Assembly: GCA_964576755.1 (NCBI GenBank)
Contig: CAZNUV010000003.1
Span: forward strand, 30,206-94,205
DNA: 64,000 bases
Direction of reading: 5' to 3'
From: Candidatus Woesearchaeota archaeon
GTDB taxonomy: Archaea > Nanobdellota > Nanobdellia > Pacearchaeales > GW2011-AR1
The notes beneath the pieces are model-generated. The model saw only the letters and a list, made by a program, of their open reading frames with translations, did no database searches and had not been told where the DNA came from. Shown one piece after another: positions 1 to 8,772 of the stretch (position 1 is its first letter; every line of letters starts with the position of its first letter). The position numbers and the translations under genes were made by a program.

Positions 1-2227
1 GAATAAGTTTTCCAACACTTCCTTGTTCTAACCTTTCTTTGACTTCTGTTTCTCCATATGCAACCTTATCTGGCTCTTTTGCAAGCATTGTGAAAAACTC
101 ATCAAGAATTTGTTTTTGTTTTGTAATCTCTTGTTCTGCTAAGACATCTTCACTTGCTTGAACTAATGCCTTTAAACCAGCTAGTTCTGTATCACCAATG
201 TCACGAACAGCAATAACTTTTTCTTTTAATGCTGTTACTAACTGGCCTGTTTCTAAAAATTCATCTTTAGTAGGAATTGGCCCACCAACTAAAATCCCTT
301 TTAATTTTTTATTATCAAAAAAATGTTTTTTCATTGAATCTGCTACTCTCCTAAAAAATGCTTTTGCAAGTCCTTCTGTAATTCTGTGAAATCTTTGAGA
401 TGAATTATGCACTACAATCCCGTTTGCAAGAAAATTGTGATTTTTAGTTTCAATGTCTATTGTTTGACTTTTGCCAATAGATTCTATTTTTGAGATTTTA
501 ACTGCAATTAAATTTGAATTATAGAACATTTCTAGTCTTCTTTTTAGTTCTAGATTCTTTATTTTTCCTAGAATTTTTTCTTTGAACATTTCCTTGCTCA
601 TTTGTCTTTTATTACAAAAAAAATAAGGTTGATTAAAATCTCTTGTATTTAATCCAGAATTTCTAATTATTTTTGCTACTTCTTTTCCATTTACAATTAG
701 TTGTCTAATCTTATTTTTCTTACTTCTGTTTCTTATTAGACTTTCTAGTTTTTCTCTTTTTTTTGAAAAACTAAAATTAATAAGAGATTTAAATTTTTTT
801 AAAGACTCTAAATCATCTATTGCTAAAGTATATCTTGTTTTATTTGAATAAGGGTTTTTCTTGTTATCATACTCTGAAATTGAAGAGATTATTCCCAACC
901 TAAGTAATACAAACTGCATCTGTTTAGATAATATCTGGTTATTTATTCCAAATGCGACCCTATTGGAGGAAACATACCCCTCTGCATCAAAAAACCCTTT
1001 AATAAACGAAGCTAAGACATTATCTGGAGACCTTAAAACAATTAAAGGAATTCCTTGACTTAGTGTTTTGTTTTTTTCTTTAAAAAAAGAATCAATAAAT
1101 TGAGATAATACTCTGCTATGAAATCTTAATTGCCAGTAACCTTTGTTTTCCCTAAATCTTAAGCTCCCCCTTAATCTGAAATAATTAGATATTAATTGAT
1201 TATATTTATCTACTACTTCTTTTGATTGCTCAGAAAAAGATATTCTATCTATCTCATGACTCCCATCTCCTAAATAATATCCTAAAATTTTCACTAATTC
1301 AGAATCTAGTATTTTTGGAATAAATATCTTTTTGGTGTTAAATGCTTGTTTTATAATTGGTTTGAAAATTATTTTTTGAGGATTAAGTGTTAGATTAATT
1401 TTTTCTGGCATGACTAAATAGTCTCCTTGTTTTATTTCTGATAGTGGTTTTTCTTTTATACCCTCACTAGTTCTTACAAAAAAGGTATGGTCTTTTGAAG
1501 CTTTAATTTCAAACCTAGGATAACAAGTAGTAACTTTTAGCAACTCTTTATTATTTTTCCATTTTGCAATTAAAGGGGTTTGTTCTGTCTTTTCTGTATT
1601 AAAATTTTCAGATAAGACTAATAAAGGATTATGAGATTCTTTAATTTTTAATATTTCTCCATCATCTTTCATTATAAGTGTATCTGGAGATAAACACTGT
1701 CCACCTGCTCTAACTTTGCCAGGTACACCAGAAGTCATGTGTTGCAAGACACGAATAGATTTTCCTTCTAAAATTCCTATTGTTGCCTCTTTTCTTTCTA
1801 TTACAAGAATAGCATAAACCTCGTCTGTTTCAAGCATTTCTTTTAAAGGGTCAAGAACAAAAGTCTGGTCACACCTATACATTCTTACTTTCAAAGGTTT
1901 TGGAGGTTCTATTGTCCAGAGTTGTAAATCTTCTTTTCCTTCAACATCAGAAACATTGCCTGCAAAAAGAACAAGCCCATTTTTAGGTGTTTTTTCAATA
2001 AGTTTTAACTGTCTTCCAATTTTATCCAGAGCATTTACAACATTCTTACGAGTAGAAGTTGATTTAATGTTTGTTGCTGTTCCTTTTTCATCTTCAATCT
2101 GTTTTCCAACTTGAGTAAGAGTATATCCTGCAGGCACATAAACAGTGATTAATTCTGTGTGCCTTCCACGATAGCCTTCAAGCTCTTCTACTGTTGCCTC
2201 GAGCTCGTATTTTTGTGCATCATCCAT
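1..2227 (-). CDS. prf1: Peptide chain release factor aRF1 (eRF1 family). It is 3'-partial (runs off the window start) and interrupted by an in-frame intein.
   Basis: Not in the ORF track because there is no stop in the window. Manual translation from ATG at 2227 gives MDDAQKYELEATVEELEGYRGRHTELITVYVP...TATNIKSTSTRKN...MTSGVPGKVRAGGQ, then the intein, then SSQRFHRITEGLAKAFFRRVADS...LKGILVGGPIPTKDEF. The NIKS and GGQ motifs are diagnostic of aRF1/eRF1. Confidence 0.9.
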   Translation of the reverse strand, partial: MDDAQKYELEATVEELEGYRGRHTELITVYVPAGYTLTQVGKQIEDEKGTATNIKSTSTRKNVVNALDKIGRQLKLIEKTPKNGLVLFAGNVSDVEGKEDLQLWTIEPPKPLKVRMYRCDQTFVLDPLKEMLETDEVYAILVIERKEATIGILEGKSIRVLQHMTSGVPGKVRAGGQCLSPDTLIMKDDGEILKIKESHNPLLVLSENFNTEKTEQTPLIAKWKNNKELLKVTTCYPRFEIKASKDHTFFVRTSEGIKEKPLSEIKQGDYLVMPEKINLTLNPQKIIFKPIIKQAFNTKKIFIPKILDSELVKILGYYLGDGSHEIDRISFSEQSKEVVDKYNQLISNYFRLRGSLRFRENKGYWQLRFHSRVLSQFIDSFFKEKNKTLSQGIPLIVLRSPDNVLASFIKGFFDAEGYVSSNRVAFGINNQILSKQMQFVLLRLGIISSISEYDNKKNPYSNKTRYTLAIDDLESLKKFKSLINFSFSKKREKLESLIRNRSKKNKIRQLIVNGKEVAKIIRNSGLNTRDFNQPYFFCNKRQMSKEMFKEKILGKIKNLELKRRLEMFYNSNLIAVKISKIESIGKSQTIDIETKNHNFLANGIVVHNSSQRFHRITEGLAKAFFRRVADSMKKHFFDNKKLKGILVGGPIPTKDEFLETGQLVTALKEKVIAVRDIGDTELAGLKALVQASEDVLAEQEITKQKQILDEFFTMLAKEPDKVAYGETEVKERLEQGSVGKLI
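404..1696 (-). mobile_element. Intein (431 codons) with a double-motif LAGLIDADG homing endonuclease domain, inserted between GGQ and S of aRF1
   Basis: Cys codon TGT at 1696..1694 directly follows GGQ. N-terminal block is CLSPDTLIMKDDGEILKI. LAGLIDADG motifs are LVKILGYYLGDGS and LASFIKGFFDAEGYVS. C-terminal block is IDIETKNHNFLANGIVVHN, followed by Ser (TCA at 403..401). Length is 1293 nt, in frame. I translated all of it and saw no stop. Confidence 0.88.
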
Positions 2228-2279
2228 AAATAGGGTTATGTAGGGGGCTTTTTATATTTTCAGGTAGAATTTAGTTTGA

Positions 2280-2735
2280 TTATTCAGAAGACCTAATTAT
2301 TTTATCACACTTATCTAAAAGAGAAAAATCAAGAAAATTTTCTTTATCATAATATTGAAGCCTCTCAAAATAATCATCAACTATTGAACTTAGTTCTTTT
2401 AATTCTTTTCTAGAGTTAATTTTTTCATCATTTGTTTGCGGTTCTTTACCTTCAGCCATTATAAGTTCACACCTTCTTTTATTAACCCTGTATACAAACC
2501 TTGTATATGGTTTTACAACTTGATCAAAAATCTTTCTCGCAATTCCGTTGCCAAGTTTTTTATAGATTTTTTCTTCATCAATTCTATCATGATTATTTTT
2601 ATCAGGCCAGTATAGGTGGATAGCTTTTGTTGCTCGTTCAGTGGCTTCTTTAGAACTCATGCCTGTTTTTACAAGATTTTTTACTACCCTGTCTACAGTA
2701 GATTGGTAAGTTAGGTCTTTTTTTGGTGTTACCAT
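2280..2735 (-). CDS. Hypothetical protein (151 aa)
   Basis: Complete ORF. TTTAAAAA box starts 29 nt upstream of the ATG (leaderless-type promoter). No family recognised. Confidence 0.6.
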   Translation of the reverse strand: MVTPKKDLTYQSTVDRVVKNLVKTGMSSKEATERATKAIHLYWPDKNNHDRIDEEKIYKKLGNGIARKIFDQVVKPYTRFVYRVNKRRCELIMAEGKEPQTNDEKINSRKELKELSSIVDDYFERLQYYDKENFLDFSLLDKCDKIIRSSE

Positions 2736-2790
2736 GTTTTTTATAGGATTTTCTTTTTTTTAAAGAAATCTATACTTTAAAGTATATAAC

Positions 2791-3291
2791 CTATTTATCT
2801 AAATCTTTCGGCTTTTCAACAGTCCAGTATTTGAAATAAGGTTTATCCCACCAAGAATGAAATTTAAGTTCAATTCTCCCTTCAAAATCTATCTCCATTA
2901 AATGAGCATCCAATATAATTCTTAAGGTTGATTGTCTAGGTTTTGGTTTGTTAGGGTCATAAGGATCTATTCCCCCACTTAGCATGATTAGTCTTCCTTC
3001 AGAATCAATTCTTTCATAGGCTATTGAAAATCCTTTATGATAATCTTTTAAAGGAAAATGAAACACTTCATCAGAATCCACTAGCATGTGTAAACCCGAG
3101 TCATCTTTTTTAAAATAAAGAGTTCTATTTTCTAGTTTTTTTCTAACTTTTGTTTTTCCTGCCCAATCATATTTACCATTCTCTCTATAACCCCCACAAT
3201 CTCGGATATATATGTTGGTAGGAGGGTAATTCTCTAAACAAAATTCTAAAGTTTCAAAAATTAATTTATCTGGTGTCCAGTATTGTTCCAT
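2791..3291 (-). CDS. Hypothetical protein (166 aa)
   Basis: Complete ORF with no competing frame. No motif recognised. Confidence 0.55.
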   Translation of the reverse strand: MEQYWTPDKLIFETLEFCLENYPPTNIYIRDCGGYRENGKYDWAGKTKVRKKLENRTLYFKKDDSGLHMLVDSDEVFHFPLKDYHKGFSIAYERIDSEGRLIMLSGGIDPYDPNKPKPRQSTLRIILDAHLMEIDFEGRIELKFHSWWDKPYFKYWTVEKPKDLDK

Positions 3292-3373
3292 GCTAGAAGT
3301 TAGATAGTCAGGTTTTTATATTTTTAAAAATTCTTACCAACACCTTTTTATACTTAAAAAAATTAATAAAAAC

Positions 3374-3643
3374 ATGGTAAAAAAGGTGATAAAGAAATCA
3401 AAAAACAAGCCTGATATTGACATAAAAGTTAGAAATCTTGGCAAGGTGATTCGTGAAAACAAAGACAAAAAACACAAGACACGTTGTGGAGGCCATTGCA
3501 GTGGATTTTGGGTTTTTGGGTCTGCACTTGCAATGATTCTGTCTTATACCAGAAGCGAGAAGATTCTCTGGGCAATCTTGCACGGAATATTTAGCTGGTT
3601 TTATATTTTATTCAGAGCTATGCAGATTTGGGGCTGGTTTTAG
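3374..3643 (+). CDS. Small membrane protein (89 aa), basic N-terminus plus two hydrophobic helices
   Basis: Contains hydrophobic segments FWVFGSALAMILSY and ILHGIFSWFYILF. Preferred over the antisense ORF 3398..3583. Confidence 0.5.
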   Translation: MVKKVIKKSKNKPDIDIKVRNLGKVIRENKDKKHKTRCGGHCSGFWVFGSALAMILSYTRSEKILWAILHGIFSWFYILFRAMQIWGWF

Positions 3644-3709
3644 GTAGAAAATTCCCTATTAATTATTTTATTGTAATTTAATCTTAGCTGAGCTGAGCAA
3701 TAGATCTTT

Positions 3710-4075
3710 CTAAATTAGATGTTCTAATCCTGCTTCTTCTGCAGCTAATTTGATTCCAACTTGATTACAATACAATTTAGAATATTTATCTTTAAATCTT
3801 GGATCAATAGTTTTGTGTTGCTGAATATGTTCTTTAGTTTTTTTGTAGGTATTTAGGGTGTCTAGACCGTAGTTAGTCATAAAAAGAGAAAAAAAGCCCG
3901 CCTCAAATAAACCAACACTAGCTACTGGAAATTTTTTTGTAATACTATACTCAATAAATCCTAATAATGGAGATAAACCCATGGCAAGATGCCTTCCAAG
4001 AGTGAATCTGTTACCGACTGCACACTTTACATAGTCTTTTATTTTTTGTTTCATTGTACTTTCCATAGTAATCAT
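3710..4075 (-). CDS. Hypothetical protein (121 aa)
   Basis: Complete ORF. No motif recognised. Confidence 0.45.
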   Translation of the reverse strand: MITMESTMKQKIKDYVKCAVGNRFTLGRHLAMGLSPLLGFIEYSITKKFPVASVGLFEAGFFSLFMTNYGLDTLNTYKKTKEHIQQHKTIDPRFKDKYSKLYCNQVGIKLAAEEAGLEHLI

Positions 4076-4148
4076 AGTTGGATAATTATTTATAAACTTT
4101 TCTATTTGTAACTACTTTAGAATAACACAATATAGTAAAATTCTAGAT

Positions 4149-4628
4149 TTATTTCTTTCTTATTTCTTCAAGCCAGTTATTTAAAGAACTATAAAACTCT
4201 TTATCAGAAGTAAAATCATTTTCAACTTCATGATATATCTCAAGACTTGATTTTGGAGAGTATGTTGTTCCTTTAGGTTCAATACACAGGAGAGTATCAT
4301 TATGCCCATCCCACTCAATCAGTGGAAATTTAGGAGCAAGACCTCTATCTAGGCTAGCATCAATCTGTTTCCATTTTCCATTAATTTTAACTTCTAAATA
4401 AACATGAAAAATTTCATCCTCGTGAGGAAGATTTATAATTTTTGTAGGTAGATTTAAACTACTCCAATCAGAATCACACACCTTAGGCCTTACTTCTAAT
4501 CCAGCATTTTTTAAGAGTCTTTCAAGAATCTTGTGTTTTCCTAGACAGCAATAGTCTGGTTCTTCAGCATTAAGTGGGCAACGATACGGTATGTCCCGCA
4601 CCCAGTTAAAATACTCTATTCTGTTCAT
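4149..4628 (-). CDS. Transglutaminase-like cysteine protease fold protein (159 aa)
   Basis: Cys...His...Asp arrangement: YCCLGKHKILERLL, FHVYLEV, WKQIDAS. This is typical of the transglutaminase-core superfamily. Confidence 0.55.
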   Translation of the reverse strand: MNRIEYFNWVRDIPYRCPLNAEEPDYCCLGKHKILERLLKNAGLEVRPKVCDSDWSSLNLPTKIINLPHEDEIFHVYLEVKINGKWKQIDASLDRGLAPKFPLIEWDGHNDTLLCIEPKGTTYSPKSSLEIYHEVENDFTSDKEFYSSLNNWLEEIRKK

Positions 4629-4691
4629 AAAAATGAGGAATAATGCTGGTTTATAAGAATTATTGTAATCTAGCAGAACTCAATCTTAAAC

Positions 4692-5039
4692 TTATCTCTT
4701 AAATTTTTGAATTATCAAACCAACTAGGCTTCCAATTAAGAAGTAGGCTACAAAAGATATTAAGATTAGCAAATTAGTTCTTAGAAAGCCATTTTCAATA
4801 TTTTTAACAAAAATAAAAAAAGGCAAAAAACTAAAATAAACTAAAATAGGTACAGTCCAAGAGGCTATATTTTGTAAACTTACTGAAGAATACTCTAGTA
4901 AAGCAAGAATAAATATCATTGCAGTTGAAATAAAATCAATTACAAAAAAGACAATTCCTGTTTTTAGCCAGAGAGGAGATCTCTGCCACCTAGTCTGCTT
5001 TTTCTTTTTTGTTGTTTGCTTTTCCCTCTTTTTTACCAT
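4692..5039 (-). CDS. Membrane protein (115 aa)
   Basis: Basic N-terminus followed by 3 hydrophobic helices. Confidence 0.5.
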   Translation of the reverse strand: MVKKREKQTTKKKKQTRWQRSPLWLKTGIVFFVIDFISTAMIFILALLEYSSVSLQNIASWTVPILVYFSFLPFFIFVKNIENGFLRTNLLILISFVAYFLIGSLVGLIIQKFKR

Positions 5040-5047
5040 ATTATATA

Positions 5048-7435
5048 TTAGATAAACTCAATTTTAAACTTTCCTGTCTTAATCTCACGTGTAGAAGTAA
5101 CAGCTTTAAAATCATCTAACATTTCTTTAAGAGCTGTCTGTTGTGTTTTTTCTAGATTTAGTGTGATTTCTGCTTTCATTGACTTTTGCTGTTTTGTTTT
5201 TTCCTGTCTAATCTTTGCAAGTAGATCTAAGAATAAATCGAGCTCTTTTGTGTCCTTTGGTTTGCCCTTGTCTGTCTTGCTTGTAGATTCTGCTTCTGGC
5301 CAGCTTGTCAGGTGAATAGAATCAATCTTTTCATACTGTTTAAAATAAGAGCAATATATTTCCTCTGTTACAAACGGCATAATCGGAGCAACCATCTTGA
5401 GGATTGCAAGTAAACTTGTGTAAAGAGTGTACTGTGCAGATAATTTTTTATCGCCAGTTTGATTATAAATCCGATACTTAATAATTTCTAAATAATTATC
5501 ACAAAACATATTCCAGAAAAATCTTTCAACACTCTGTTTTACTTTACTATACCCATATTCTTCAAAACTTACTGTTGCTGCAGTGATTAAGATGTTAAGC
5601 CTGTCTAAAAATTGCTGGTCAATTTTTTCAAGCGTTTTTAGTTTTCCCTGCTTAATAGGATTGTAATCTTCAAGATTCATAAAAGTAAATTTAGAAGCAT
5701 TCCATAGCTTATTGATAAACTTTTTACCTGTAACCATATCTTGCTCTTGATAGTCTAGGTCTTCTCCAAGTTTAGAACCAGATGCCCAGAACCTTAGAGC
5801 GTCTGCACTATATTTTTCAATTACTTCTTGAGGTTTTACAGAATTGCCTTTTGATTTTGACATTTTTTCTTTTCCAAGTGTAACAAATCCAGAAACCATC
5901 ATGTTTTCCCAAGGAATCTGGTTTTCGTGATAAAGCGATTTAACAATGGTGTAAAAATCCCATGTCCTAATAATATCATGAGCATTGCACCTGATTGAAA
6001 ACGGAATTTTAACTTTGTTGTTTACTAAAGATGCGCAAATCTGAGGAGTAATTGAAGACGTAGCCCATGTGTCTAAAACTTTTTCTTCTGGTCTTGCTTT
6101 TGCACCACACTTAGGACATTTTTTAGTAGTTTGTATAGGGTCTATTGGTAGTTCTTTTTCATCGGGTAAAATAATCTGATTACACTTATCACAGTACCAA
6201 ATAGGAATTGGAATTCCAAAGTGTCTGTCTCGAGAAATAGACCAGTCCCATTCTAAACCTTCAACCCAGTTCTCGTATCTTTTGTACATAAATTTTGGTA
6301 ACCAACTAACTTTCTTACCTTGGTTAAGAAACTTTTTTTTATTATCTAGGATTTTAATAAACCACTGAGCTGTTGTTATAAATTCTATTTCTGTTCCACA
6401 TCTGTCGTGAACATTAACTGCGTGGGAAATCTGCTTTTTTTCTGTAATTAGTCCTGATTTTTCTAAATCTTCAAGAATTTGTTTTCTTGCTTGTTTTATT
6501 TTTAACCCTTTATATTTTTCTGCAAGCTTATTAAGTGTCCCGTTTTGATTTAAAATAATTCTTGGATTTAGCTTGTGTTTATTTATTGCTTCAACATCAA
6601 ACTTGTCTCCATAAGAACAAACCATTAACATTCCTGTGCCTTTTTCCATGTCTGCACTAGGGTCTTCAAGAATAGGAACCTCATAATTAAATAAAGGGAT
6701 TTTAGCTTTCTTACCTTTTAGATGTTTAAATCTTTCGTCTTTAGGATTGTAAAAAATAGCAACACACGCAGGTATTAGTTCTGGACGTGTTGTAGCAATT
6801 AATAAATCCTTTCCTTCACAAGAAAACTTTATTGTTGAAAACAAACTTGCAAGCTCTTTGTCTTCTAATTCTGCCTGAGCAATAGCTGTCTGACACTCAG
6901 GACACCAGATTGTTGGAAACTCTTTTGTATAAATTAGTTTTTTATTATAAAGCTCTAAAAATGATTTTTGAGACATTTTTCTAGAGTTATCATCAATAGT
7001 TGAATAGGCTAAACTATAATCAGAAGAAATCCCAATATTTTTCCAGTCTTGTATAAAATCTGGTGTAATTTCTTTTAGTGTTTTTAGACAGAGCTTGATA
7101 AATTCTGCACGAGTCATGTCCTTGCTCTTAACATTTTTTAGTCTCTCTATTAATCTCTCTGTAGGAAGACCGTTATCATCTGTTCCAAACGGGTAGAATA
7201 CACTCTGGCCAGACATTCTTTTAAATCTAGCTACAAAATCTTGCTGAGAGTACTGAAAAGCGTGACCAATATGCATCTGTCCAGAAACAGTTGGAGGAGG
7301 ATTGTCAATACTAAAAATTTGCGCCTTGTTTTTAGAATCAAATTTGTAAGTACCCTGCTTTTCCCAGTAATCTTTCCACTTTTTTTCTATTTCCAGGGCA
7401 TTATACTTACCTAGTTCTGGCTTATTATTAGTCAT
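5048..7435 (-). CDS. valS: Valyl-tRNA synthetase
   Basis: 795 aa. HIGH-type motif PPPTVSGQMHIGHAF, KMSKS motif, and Zn-knuckle CPECQ/CDKC. Confidence 0.93.
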   Translation of the reverse strand: MTNNKPELGKYNALEIEKKWKDYWEKQGTYKFDSKNKAQIFSIDNPPPTVSGQMHIGHAFQYSQQDFVARFKRMSGQSVFYPFGTDDNGLPTERLIERLKNVKSKDMTRAEFIKLCLKTLKEITPDFIQDWKNIGISSDYSLAYSTIDDNSRKMSQKSFLELYNKKLIYTKEFPTIWCPECQTAIAQAELEDKELASLFSTIKFSCEGKDLLIATTRPELIPACVAIFYNPKDERFKHLKGKKAKIPLFNYEVPILEDPSADMEKGTGMLMVCSYGDKFDVEAINKHKLNPRIILNQNGTLNKLAEKYKGLKIKQARKQILEDLEKSGLITEKKQISHAVNVHDRCGTEIEFITTAQWFIKILDNKKKFLNQGKKVSWLPKFMYKRYENWVEGLEWDWSISRDRHFGIPIPIWYCDKCNQIILPDEKELPIDPIQTTKKCPKCGAKARPEEKVLDTWATSSITPQICASLVNNKVKIPFSIRCNAHDIIRTWDFYTIVKSLYHENQIPWENMMVSGFVTLGKEKMSKSKGNSVKPQEVIEKYSADALRFWASGSKLGEDLDYQEQDMVTGKKFINKLWNASKFTFMNLEDYNPIKQGKLKTLEKIDQQFLDRLNILITAATVSFEEYGYSKVKQSVERFFWNMFCDNYLEIIKYRIYNQTGDKKLSAQYTLYTSLLAILKMVAPIMPFVTEEIYCSYFKQYEKIDSIHLTSWPEAESTSKTDKGKPKDTKELDLFLDLLAKIRQEKTKQQKSMKAEITLNLEKTQQTALKEMLDDFKAVTSTREIKTGKFKIEFI

Positions 7436-8180: not shown

Positions 8181-8684
8181 TTATATTCTTCTTTGATTAG
8201 ATTCATCATCCCATTTTAGAATCTTCATTTGTTTTCTATAATATTCCCCTGATTGAAATTTTCTTATAGTGTCTAGATTTTTATCTACATAAGGATTTCC
8301 TGCTTTTGCACCAGGTTTTTGATTATCTGGAATAGCATCTTCTGGATAAACTTTTTTGGTTATGTTAATCACTAGATTTTCTCGAAGTGTTTCTGTTAAA
8401 CATTCATCATAAAAATCTGCCCCTGCAGGACTTATACATCTATAATACTTAGTTAATTCTTGAAATTCCTTTTTACCCTTACTATAAACAATACATTCTA
8501 AAAGAGAGTCTAGAGAGTGTTCTATTCTTAGTTCATCATGAATTTTATTGTTTATTATTTCTTGAACTTCTTGTTTTGTTAGAATATACTTTTGATTTGT
8601 TAATTTAATTATCTCGTTTGCTAATAAGACCATTCTATTTATTAGATTATTTGAATCGCCTGGTTTATCTGAATCATCTACCAT
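8181..8684 (-). CDS. Hypothetical protein (167 aa)
   Basis: Complete ORF. No motif recognised. Confidence 0.5.
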   Translation of the reverse strand: MVDDSDKPGDSNNLINRMVLLANEIIKLTNQKYILTKQEVQEIINNKIHDELRIEHSLDSLLECIVYSKGKKEFQELTKYYRCISPAGADFYDECLTETLRENLVINITKKVYPEDAIPDNQKPGAKAGNPYVDKNLDTIRKFQSGEYYRKQMKILKWDDESNQRRI

Positions 8685-8772
8685 AAAAAACCTAATGGAG
8701 AGGTAATATAAAAATTTAATTACACTAGAGTTAATCCCAAAAAATTAAAAAGCCTCCTAAGTATCAAATAAC

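Follow-up and report, generated by a model that had tools for sequence, protein, structure and literature searches.

Locus and host gene

The stretch analysed here, hereafter the window, comprises 64,000 nucleotides (nt) of contig CAZNUV010000003.1 (positions 30,206 to 94,205 of the forward strand) from the Candidatus Woesearchaeota archaeon assembly GCA_964576755.1. At its beginning lies a minus-strand gene for the archaeal class-I release factor 1 (aRF1), which is interrupted in frame, exactly at the catalytic GGQ motif, by an insert of 431 amino acids (aa) with the features of a class-1 intein carrying a LAGLIDADG homing endonuclease. The locus, in window positions and in the order of transcription, is organized as follows:

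2249..2260, minus strand: TATA-like A+T-rich box AAAATATAAAAA (read from the sequence)
1697..2227, minus strand: aRF1 N-extein, 177 aa (translation; Pfam eRF1_1 and eRF1_2; TIGR03676 on the joined exteins)
404..1696, minus strand: class-1 intein with LAGLIDADG homing endonuclease, 431 aa (Pfam, TIGRFAM, AlphaFold2, Foldseek)
1658..1696, minus strand: intein block A, CLSPDTLIMKDDG, with the nucleophile Cys1 (translation; conserved N-junction)
1475..1498, minus strand: intein block B, SKDHTFFV, with Ser67-x-x-His70, a variant of TxxH (translation)
1259..1297, minus strand: LAGLIDADG motif 1, LVKILGYYLGDGS, intein residues 134-146, with catalytic Asp144 (family alignment)
968..1015, minus strand: LAGLIDADG motif 2, LASFIKGFFDAEGYVS, intein residues 228-243, with catalytic Glu239 (family alignment)
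512..766, minus strand: helical region past the endonuclease core, intein residues about 311-395 (AlphaFold2 helices H311-392)
404..463, minus strand: intein blocks F and G, TIDIETKNHNFLANG-IVVHN, with Asp414, His430 and Asn431 (translation; TIGR01443)
2..403, minus strand: aRF1 C-extein, 134 aa visible (translation; Pfam; TIGR03676; alignment to 4af1)

The frame starting at the ATG at 2227 remains open over 742 codons up to the window edge. The gene is missing from the list of open reading frames (ORFs) because the frame runs off the window start, as a preliminary description of this DNA, made from the sequence alone, had noted. The N-extein contains domain 1 of the release factor (TATNIKS, YRCDQTF) and domain 2 as far as ...VRAGGQ (SGVPGKVRAGGQ), whereas the C-extein starts with Ser+1, continues with SQRFHRITEG... 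and supplies what remains of domain 2 together with the beginning of domain 3. It is cut by the window edge, with roughly 90-100 aa lying outside the window, and of eRF1_3 (domain 3, which binds the GTPase partner) Pfam finds just the first 41 residues inside. The translation displays NIKS (TATNIKS), YxCxxxF (MYRCDQTF) and RAGGQ/S, that is, the two stop-codon recognition motifs and the GGQ motif as defined previously (PMC2613156); GGQ has been described as universally conserved and essential for peptide release (PMC2613156).

When the exteins are joined, the 311 visible residues match the aRF1 model TIGR03676 with 374.1 bits (E=7e-112; cutoff 234.7), covering model positions 1-309 in one contiguous match, whereas the score against the Pelota model (66 bits) is under the cutoff. 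Alignment with the solved Halobacterium aRF1 (4af1) shows no gap across VPGK.R.GGQS.QRF. Together with 77 orthologous loci in which the site is empty (see below), these matches bear out the earlier proposal that the exteins are contiguous across the GGQ/S junction. The exteins are up to 78% identical to the closest aRF1 genes from one-per-species reference genomes. The TATA-like box, AAAATATAAAAA, is centred about 27 nt upstream of the ATG and is a possible candidate for the archaeal promoter of a leaderless aRF1 mRNA.

The interrupted gene could, in principle, be a dead copy or an assembly artefact, with another, intact aRF1 doing the work in the cell. The window displays 64 kb of the genome and its edge cuts the gene, which leaves some room for this scenario. 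We nevertheless regard it as highly improbable: a frame of 742 codons carries neither a stop nor a frameshift in an A+T-rich genome, the exteins are as well conserved as stated above, a TATA-like box precedes the gene, and the same architecture recurs in about 75 independent assemblies. Furthermore, a tblastn search of the 64 kb window recovered no second aRF1, and the two intein-bearing reference assemblies each appear once among the 80 aRF1 loci kept for comparison. We infer that the cell has no second aRF1.

Splicing and endonuclease domains of the insert

The insert (1696..404; 1293 nt) consists of 431 codons without a stop and is located between Gln177 of GGQ, the -1 residue, and the following Ser (+1). 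It opens with the Cys1 codon TGT (1696..1694) and closes with NGIVVHN, the final Asn being encoded at 406..404, after which aRF1 restarts at 403 with SSQRFHRITEG. All coordinates and sequences of the preliminary description, including the two LAGLIDADG motifs, the terminal NGIVVHN and the SSQRFHRITEG continuation, were thereby reproduced by translation. The residues required for class-1 splicing are all present (C1, H70, D414, H430, N431 and S+1), and the block-B His is kept in the consensus of the family alignment.

Profile searches identify both functional parts of the insert. The splicing domain is recognized over residues 9-431 by PF14890 (Intein_splicing; 64.3 bits, cutoff 35.8, E=1.5e-17), and its N-terminal and C-terminal regions by TIGR01445 (25.4 bits, cutoff 24.5) and TIGR01443 (26.3 bits, cutoff 15.6), respectively, whereas PF14528 (LAGLIDADG_3; 64.6 bits, E=1e-17) matches in two stretches. 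The search with Hint and LAGLIDADG hidden Markov models proposed earlier thus returned scores above the cutoff for all four models. Partial matches were obtained to the intein portions of the NCBIfam models for IF-2, DnaB, RFC, RNA polymerase A'', V-ATPase A, RtcB and GyrA. In an alignment of 29 family sequences, motif 1 (ILGYYLGD144G) has invariant G139, Y140 and G145, with G143 and D144 present in at least 90%, while in motif 2 (IKGFFDAE239G) F236, D237 and G240 are invariant and A238 and E239 are present in at least 90%. Both motifs end in an acidic residue followed by Gly (D144-G and E239-G).

The AlphaFold2 model of the intein, built on the same 29-sequence alignment, has a mean predicted local distance difference test score (pLDDT) of 92.8 and a predicted template modelling (TM) score (pTM) of 0.92. 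Its β-rich N and C lobes match solved inteins, and Foldseek places it close to inteins associated with homing endonucleases (7qss, TM 0.78; 1dq3, 0.69; 2cw7 and 1vde), the neighbours being the TliVMA intein, PI-PfuI, PI-TkoII and PI-SceI. The top sequence-level matches in the Protein Data Bank are the same proteins. Residues 132-306 are predicted to adopt the α-β-β-α-β-β-α pseudo-dimeric pattern and superpose on I-DmoI and I-Tsp061I with a target-normalized TM score of about 0.7. The whole-chain structural match to the TliVMA intein and PI-PfuI extends over the helical region at 512..766, which probably corresponds to the accessory (stirrup-like) domain of archaeal LAGLIDADG inteins. The profile matches, the conservation of D144 and E239 and the structural comparisons agree in supporting the earlier impression of an intact endonuclease, and the insert appears to be a real class-1 homing intein, apparently intact and active.

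A family of inteins at the GGQ/S site

A search of 5.8 billion proteins with the intein alone yielded 79 matches, about 75 of which also contain eRF1 domains. The latter correspond to about 75 protein clusters, drawn from metagenomes of Nanoarchaeota, Pacearchaeota and Woesearchaeota, in which a related intein occupies the identical GGQ/S site, whereas just three matches reside in other hosts (RadA, MCM and one unidentified) and are 23-27% identical to the query. The N-junction is covered by 47 homologues and reads GG(Q/M)/C in every one of them (GGQ in 46), and the C-junction reads VHN/S..R(F/Y) in 38 of 38. The closest group in the family is 57-71% identical to the window intein. Representative members include P0001, P0011, P0029, L077 (JAYEHV010000028) and L079 (JAHIWS010000019).

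Length classes, counted only for alleles with both junctions, comprise LAGLIDADG inteins of 409-432 aa, longer forms of 497-505 aa in which an XRE-type HTH_3 (helix-turn-helix) domain is inserted ahead of motif 1, forms of 363 and 392 aa with internal deletions, and mini-inteins of 133-137 aa. The whole homing cycle is represented at the GGQ/S site: inteins occur in intact, HTH-augmented, partly deleted and mini form, and many sites are empty. For work on the life cycle of inteins in uncultivated archaea, the family provides a naturally occurring series.

The HTH_3 domain, found in P0018, P0025, P0030, P0033, P0043, P0046, P0047, P0048, P0054 and P0058, follows the N-terminal Hint lobe and precedes LAGLIDADG motif 1, and may represent an added DNA-binding module; in P0030 and P0033, whose sequences cover both junctions, the intein measures about 500 aa. 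Mini-inteins of 133-137 aa occupy the GGQ/S site in P0074, P0075, P0076, P0078 and L079 (4511-4921). In four of them the N- and C-terminal blocks are almost those of the full-length form, suggesting that these four arose through deletion of the endonuclease, while the L079 mini-intein is far more divergent (30% identical). At roughly 135 aa, mini-inteins that occupy a Gly-Gly-Gln / Ser junction might also serve protein engineering.

Among the partly deleted forms, P0013 (363 aa) is without LAGLIDADG motif 1, P0015 (392 aa) is missing part of the N-terminal Hint lobe, block B included, and P0022 has a further deletion close to the C-terminus; these are either real decay states or assembly errors. 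Two other candidates for decay were rejected. In L082 (760 kb ENA contig), the intein is spread over three frames, but the adjacent tRNA synthetase is frameshifted too, so that the frameshifts probably reflect a long-read assembly error rather than decay; the aRF1-plus-intein gene and the neighbouring class-I tRNA synthetase gene are both broken up into several gene calls (1650-6376, 8419-8768), and a reverse-transcriptase (RVT_1) gene is located about 2 kb downstream. The missing N-extein of L083 coincides with a 100-N scaffold gap, and neither of these fragmented alleles on long contigs is informative.

The public names of the family members include 'LAGLIDADG family homing endonuclease, partial', 'hypothetical protein' and 'Dom34', and none of the about 75 public entries bears a name denoting an aRF1 intein. 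These proteins are mis-named or split by gene callers, and aRF1, which commonly serves as a single-copy marker, can in consequence seem to be missing, broken up or too long in DPANN genome bins.

Distribution and mobility

To place the intein among its empty counterparts, we used 80 related aRF1 loci from one-per-species reference genomes, a biased sample in which contiguous matches rank higher. The insertion site is empty, with a zero-nucleotide gap, in 77 of the 80. L077 carries an intein of 431 aa that is 64% identical to the window intein, the sole full-length intein among the reference genomes, whereas L079 carries the 137-aa mini-intein. All 77 intein-free alleles have Ser at +1 and, accordingly, every aRF1 supplies the nucleophile that the intein needs. 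The empty site of L001 matches the rejoined flanks of the window at 55 of 60 nt, and at 22 of 24 around the junction; the sequence of the empty site of L001 or L003 is GTTAGGGCAGGAGGACAG immediately followed by TCTTCTCAAAGATTTCAC, with the insertion point between the two. The viral contigs of IMG/VR yielded no close relative of the intein.

Comparison of the 21 alleles with a complete intein (175 pairs) showed that intein identity exceeds extein identity in 60 pairs. The window allele shares 71% intein and 62% extein identity with P0001, and 66% and 54%, respectively, with P0002. Higher similarity of the intein than of the extein would not be expected if the intein were a passenger, aRF1 being among the most conserved proteins, and since inteins are often more similar than their hosts, mobility can be argued. 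On a neighbour-joining tree of 115 N-exteins (177 aa), the 15 nearest neighbours of the window are all intein-free, and intein presence requires at least 18 changes compared with a mean of 35 and a minimum of 27 for shuffled labels, the event count being rough, as the tree was built from 177 aa and the two kinds of sequence, with and without an intein, were collected by different routes. The ratio of nonsynonymous to synonymous substitution rates (dN/dS) of the endonuclease domain, about 0.09-0.13 against two relatives and similar to that of the exteins, is to be taken qualitatively, because dS is saturated (1.1 to above 3; one undefined).

We consider it probable, at roughly 0.8, that the insert is a canonical class-1 intein with a two-motif LAGLIDADG homing endonuclease, residing in frame in aRF1 at the GGQ/S junction. 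Besides the rough event count and the saturated dS, several points weigh against this interpretation. Block B has Ser in place of the usual Thr (SKDH); between the window and L077 the intein is less similar than the extein (64% versus 73%), as under vertical descent; the aRF1 C-terminus falls outside the window; and a second, intein-free aRF1 could lie elsewhere in the genome, beyond the 64 kb seen here.

Several of these results could also be accommodated if the intein splices but no longer moves, its endonuclease having ceased to cut and the element being kept as imprecise loss would destroy an essential gene; the distribution would then reflect old vertical inheritance combined with many precise losses. 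Such a history would account for the partial clustering of intein presence on the extein tree (18 changes versus about 35 when shuffled) and for the comparison with L077, and the degenerate and mini forms show that endonuclease loss is common at this site. It fits poorly, however, with the conservation of both catalytic acids and of the whole endonuclease domain, a dN/dS of about 0.1, a confidently predicted endonuclease fold, the isolated position of the window allele among 15 intein-free neighbours and the occurrence of its closest intein (71%) in a more distant host (62%). We therefore consider immobility unlikely and favour an element that, as the sequence comparisons suggest, still moves or moved recently, with some vertical inheritance.

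Proposed splicing and homing mechanism

The steps envisaged for the homing intein follow standard class-1 intein chemistry for splicing and LAGLIDADG chemistry for homing. The precursor would be a protein of roughly 840 aa in which the tip of domain 2 is split by a module of 431 aa (50 kDa). Because the intein splits the GGQ loop, this precursor would be unable to place GGQ in the peptidyl-transferase centre. Splicing would begin with an N-S acyl shift by Cys1 at the Gln-Cys bond, followed by attack of Ser+1 on the thioester (transesterification) to give a branched ester. Cyclization of Asn431, aided by His430, would then release the intein, and an O-N acyl shift would form the native Gln-Ser bond, rebuilding GGQS. 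In Haloferax aRF1, the GGQ glutamine is methylated by Mtq2 (PMC6144793); as the target Gln is the -1 residue of the intein, Mtq2-type methylation would presumably take place after splicing.

Either the freed intein or the precursor would act as a site-specific endonuclease, with Asp144 and Glu239 binding metal ions. Its predicted target is the intein-free aRF1 gene, within approximately 20-40 bp encoding ...AGGQ/SSQRF..., and repair of the cut allele from the occupied one would copy the intein into it. It is a reasonable inference from the sequence that translation termination in this archaeon depends on splicing and, likewise, that the intein is actively homing.

The position of the intein also raises the question of regulation. 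Condition-dependent inteins have general precedent, and an intein at a catalytic tripeptide would make splicing an all-or-none switch, so that the splicing rate, set by redox, temperature or another signal, might gate the supply of active release factor. Retention of the family across many DPANN lineages would suit such a role. Yet 77 of the 80 related species do without the intein, the patchy distribution resembling that of mobile elements and the decay series fit a selfish element, and a regulatory feature was not identified in the intein, making conditional splicing very unlikely. An extension of this idea, equally speculative and in our estimation improbable, is that the GGQ/S intein constitutes a widespread, DPANN-specific maturation checkpoint of termination, where slow or condition-dependent splicing sets the supply of active aRF1. 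Were this the case, splicing would precede Mtq2 methylation, stop-codon readthrough or growth rate would be set in this way in host-dependent archaea, and the HTH-bearing variants would be a new intein architecture adding an XRE-type DNA-binding module.

Comparison with known inteins

The closest structural counterparts of the window intein, the Thermococcus litoralis VMA (TliVMA) intein (7qss) and PI-PfuI (1dq3; the Pyrococcus furiosus ribonucleotide reductase intein), share its architecture, in which a two-motif LAGLIDADG endonuclease interrupts the Hint domain and a helical accessory region is also present, with sequence E-values of about 1e-11 to 1e-13 at about 20% identity. However, they reside at other insertion sites, in the V-ATPase A subunit and the ribonucleotide reductase of Thermococcales, in contrast to the DPANN release factor. 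PI-SceI, the intein of yeast VMA1, similarly combines splicing with a LAGLIDADG endonuclease, runs from Cys1 to His-Asn and sits in the catalytic region of an essential protein; its likeness to the window intein is more distant (Foldseek E about 1e-14, TM about 0.5, 12-13% identity) and it is eukaryotic. It is the archetypal homing intein and the model for the homing mechanism envisaged above, but uses Cys+1 where the window intein has Ser+1.

With respect to the host, the nearest parallel is the archaeal aIF2/IF-2 intein, which also occupies a core translation factor; the best partial NCBIfam match of the insert (72.8 bits) is to the intein part of the intein-containing IF-2 model. That host is an initiation GTPase with the intein at another site, whereas the host in the window is a termination factor. 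The same host gene and the same GGQ/S site are found in the public DPANN aRF1 inteins, which were not deposited as an intein allele. In the main text of a 2016 genomic survey of inteins, aIF2 is listed among the archaeal hosts and core translation components are stated to hold few inteins, with no mention there of a release factor as a host (PMC4760082).

The preliminary description had suspected that the GGQ site of aRF1 was uncatalogued. None of the papers searched, a coverage excluding InBase and the supplement of PMC4760082, connects a natural intein with aRF1, eRF1 or GGQ; a paper on Bodo saltans virus containing both intein and release-factor phrases was discarded, as the mentions are separate. 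The NCBIfam scan likewise returned no dedicated model for intein-containing aRF1, although 'exception' models were returned for RtcB, GyrA and a radical-SAM protein. The suspicion held in this respect, but the allele is not unique, given the about 75 unannotated public examples. What is new are the host and the insertion site, whereas the architecture and presumed chemistry are those of a standard LAGLIDADG intein. The GGQ/S inteins are an unrecognized but fairly widespread DPANN family and, judged by its best identity of 71%, the window allele represents a new sequence within this undescribed family. A class-I release factor and the universal GGQ tripeptide join the list of intein homes, and the rule that inteins target the most conserved catalytic sites now reaches the termination step of translation.

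Genomic context and other aRF1 loci

The window has about 30% G+C and a single tRNA; other genes encode an intein-free family-B DNA polymerase, topoisomerase IA, CDC48 and class-I/II aminoacyl-tRNA synthetases. Neither another intein nor a second aRF1 was detected by tblastn of the 64 kb window or by Pfam searches of its ten largest ORFs. In the one-per-species reference genomes, the nearest aRF1 genes come from metagenome-assembled genomes (MAGs) of Pacearchaeota, Woesearchaeota and Nanoarchaeota, at no more than 78% identity. The gene content and the nearest aRF1 genes are consistent with a DPANN archaeon as host, in keeping with its initial characterization as a reduced-genome archaeon. The G+C content of the intein (404-1696) is 0.23-0.30 compared with 0.31-0.36 in the flanking exteins (1-403 and 1697-2227), which is mildly consistent with foreign origin or weaker constraint.

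A class-I aminoacyl-tRNA synthetase gene (5048-7435, minus strand) is located upstream of aRF1, with five small ORFs in between. In the intein-bearing relatives L081 (591-2945) and L082 (1650-3999), a class-I aminoacyl-tRNA synthetase gene lies directly upstream of aRF1, and the arrangement in the three loci constitutes partial synteny.

Seven aRF1-family proteins of DPANN archaea (L062, L066, L067, L071, L073, L080 and P0064) are without GGQ, which is replaced by GGF in four, GGW in two and GGM in the intein-bearing P0064, followed in each case by SQ (GG[FWM]SQ). In L062, L066, L067 and L071, the junction falls at about 4529-4534. The GGQ-less proteins keep NIKS-like motifs and occur in at least three places on the extein tree; their assignment to Pelota was rejected, because their scores against the aRF1 model amount to 290-478 bits (cutoff 234.7), whereas they fall under the Pelota cutoff.

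Several further loci deserve mention. L025 (JBNMFJ010000007.1), labelled 'Patescibacteria group bacterium', encodes an archaeal aRF1 that is 69% identical to that of the window, and is probably a mis-binned DPANN contig. Two Woesearchaeota MAGs contain a different LAGLIDADG intein, about 24% identical (L034, 6379-7776; L036, 4352-5371), whose host gene is not aRF1 but one located about 2 kb downstream of it, the aRF1 itself having no intein. Finally, in the 3.5 kb contig L027, the best match to the N-extein (2840-3370) is located downstream of the match to the C-extein (589-990), with both on the same strand, an order that suggests a duplicated or circularly permuted assembly.

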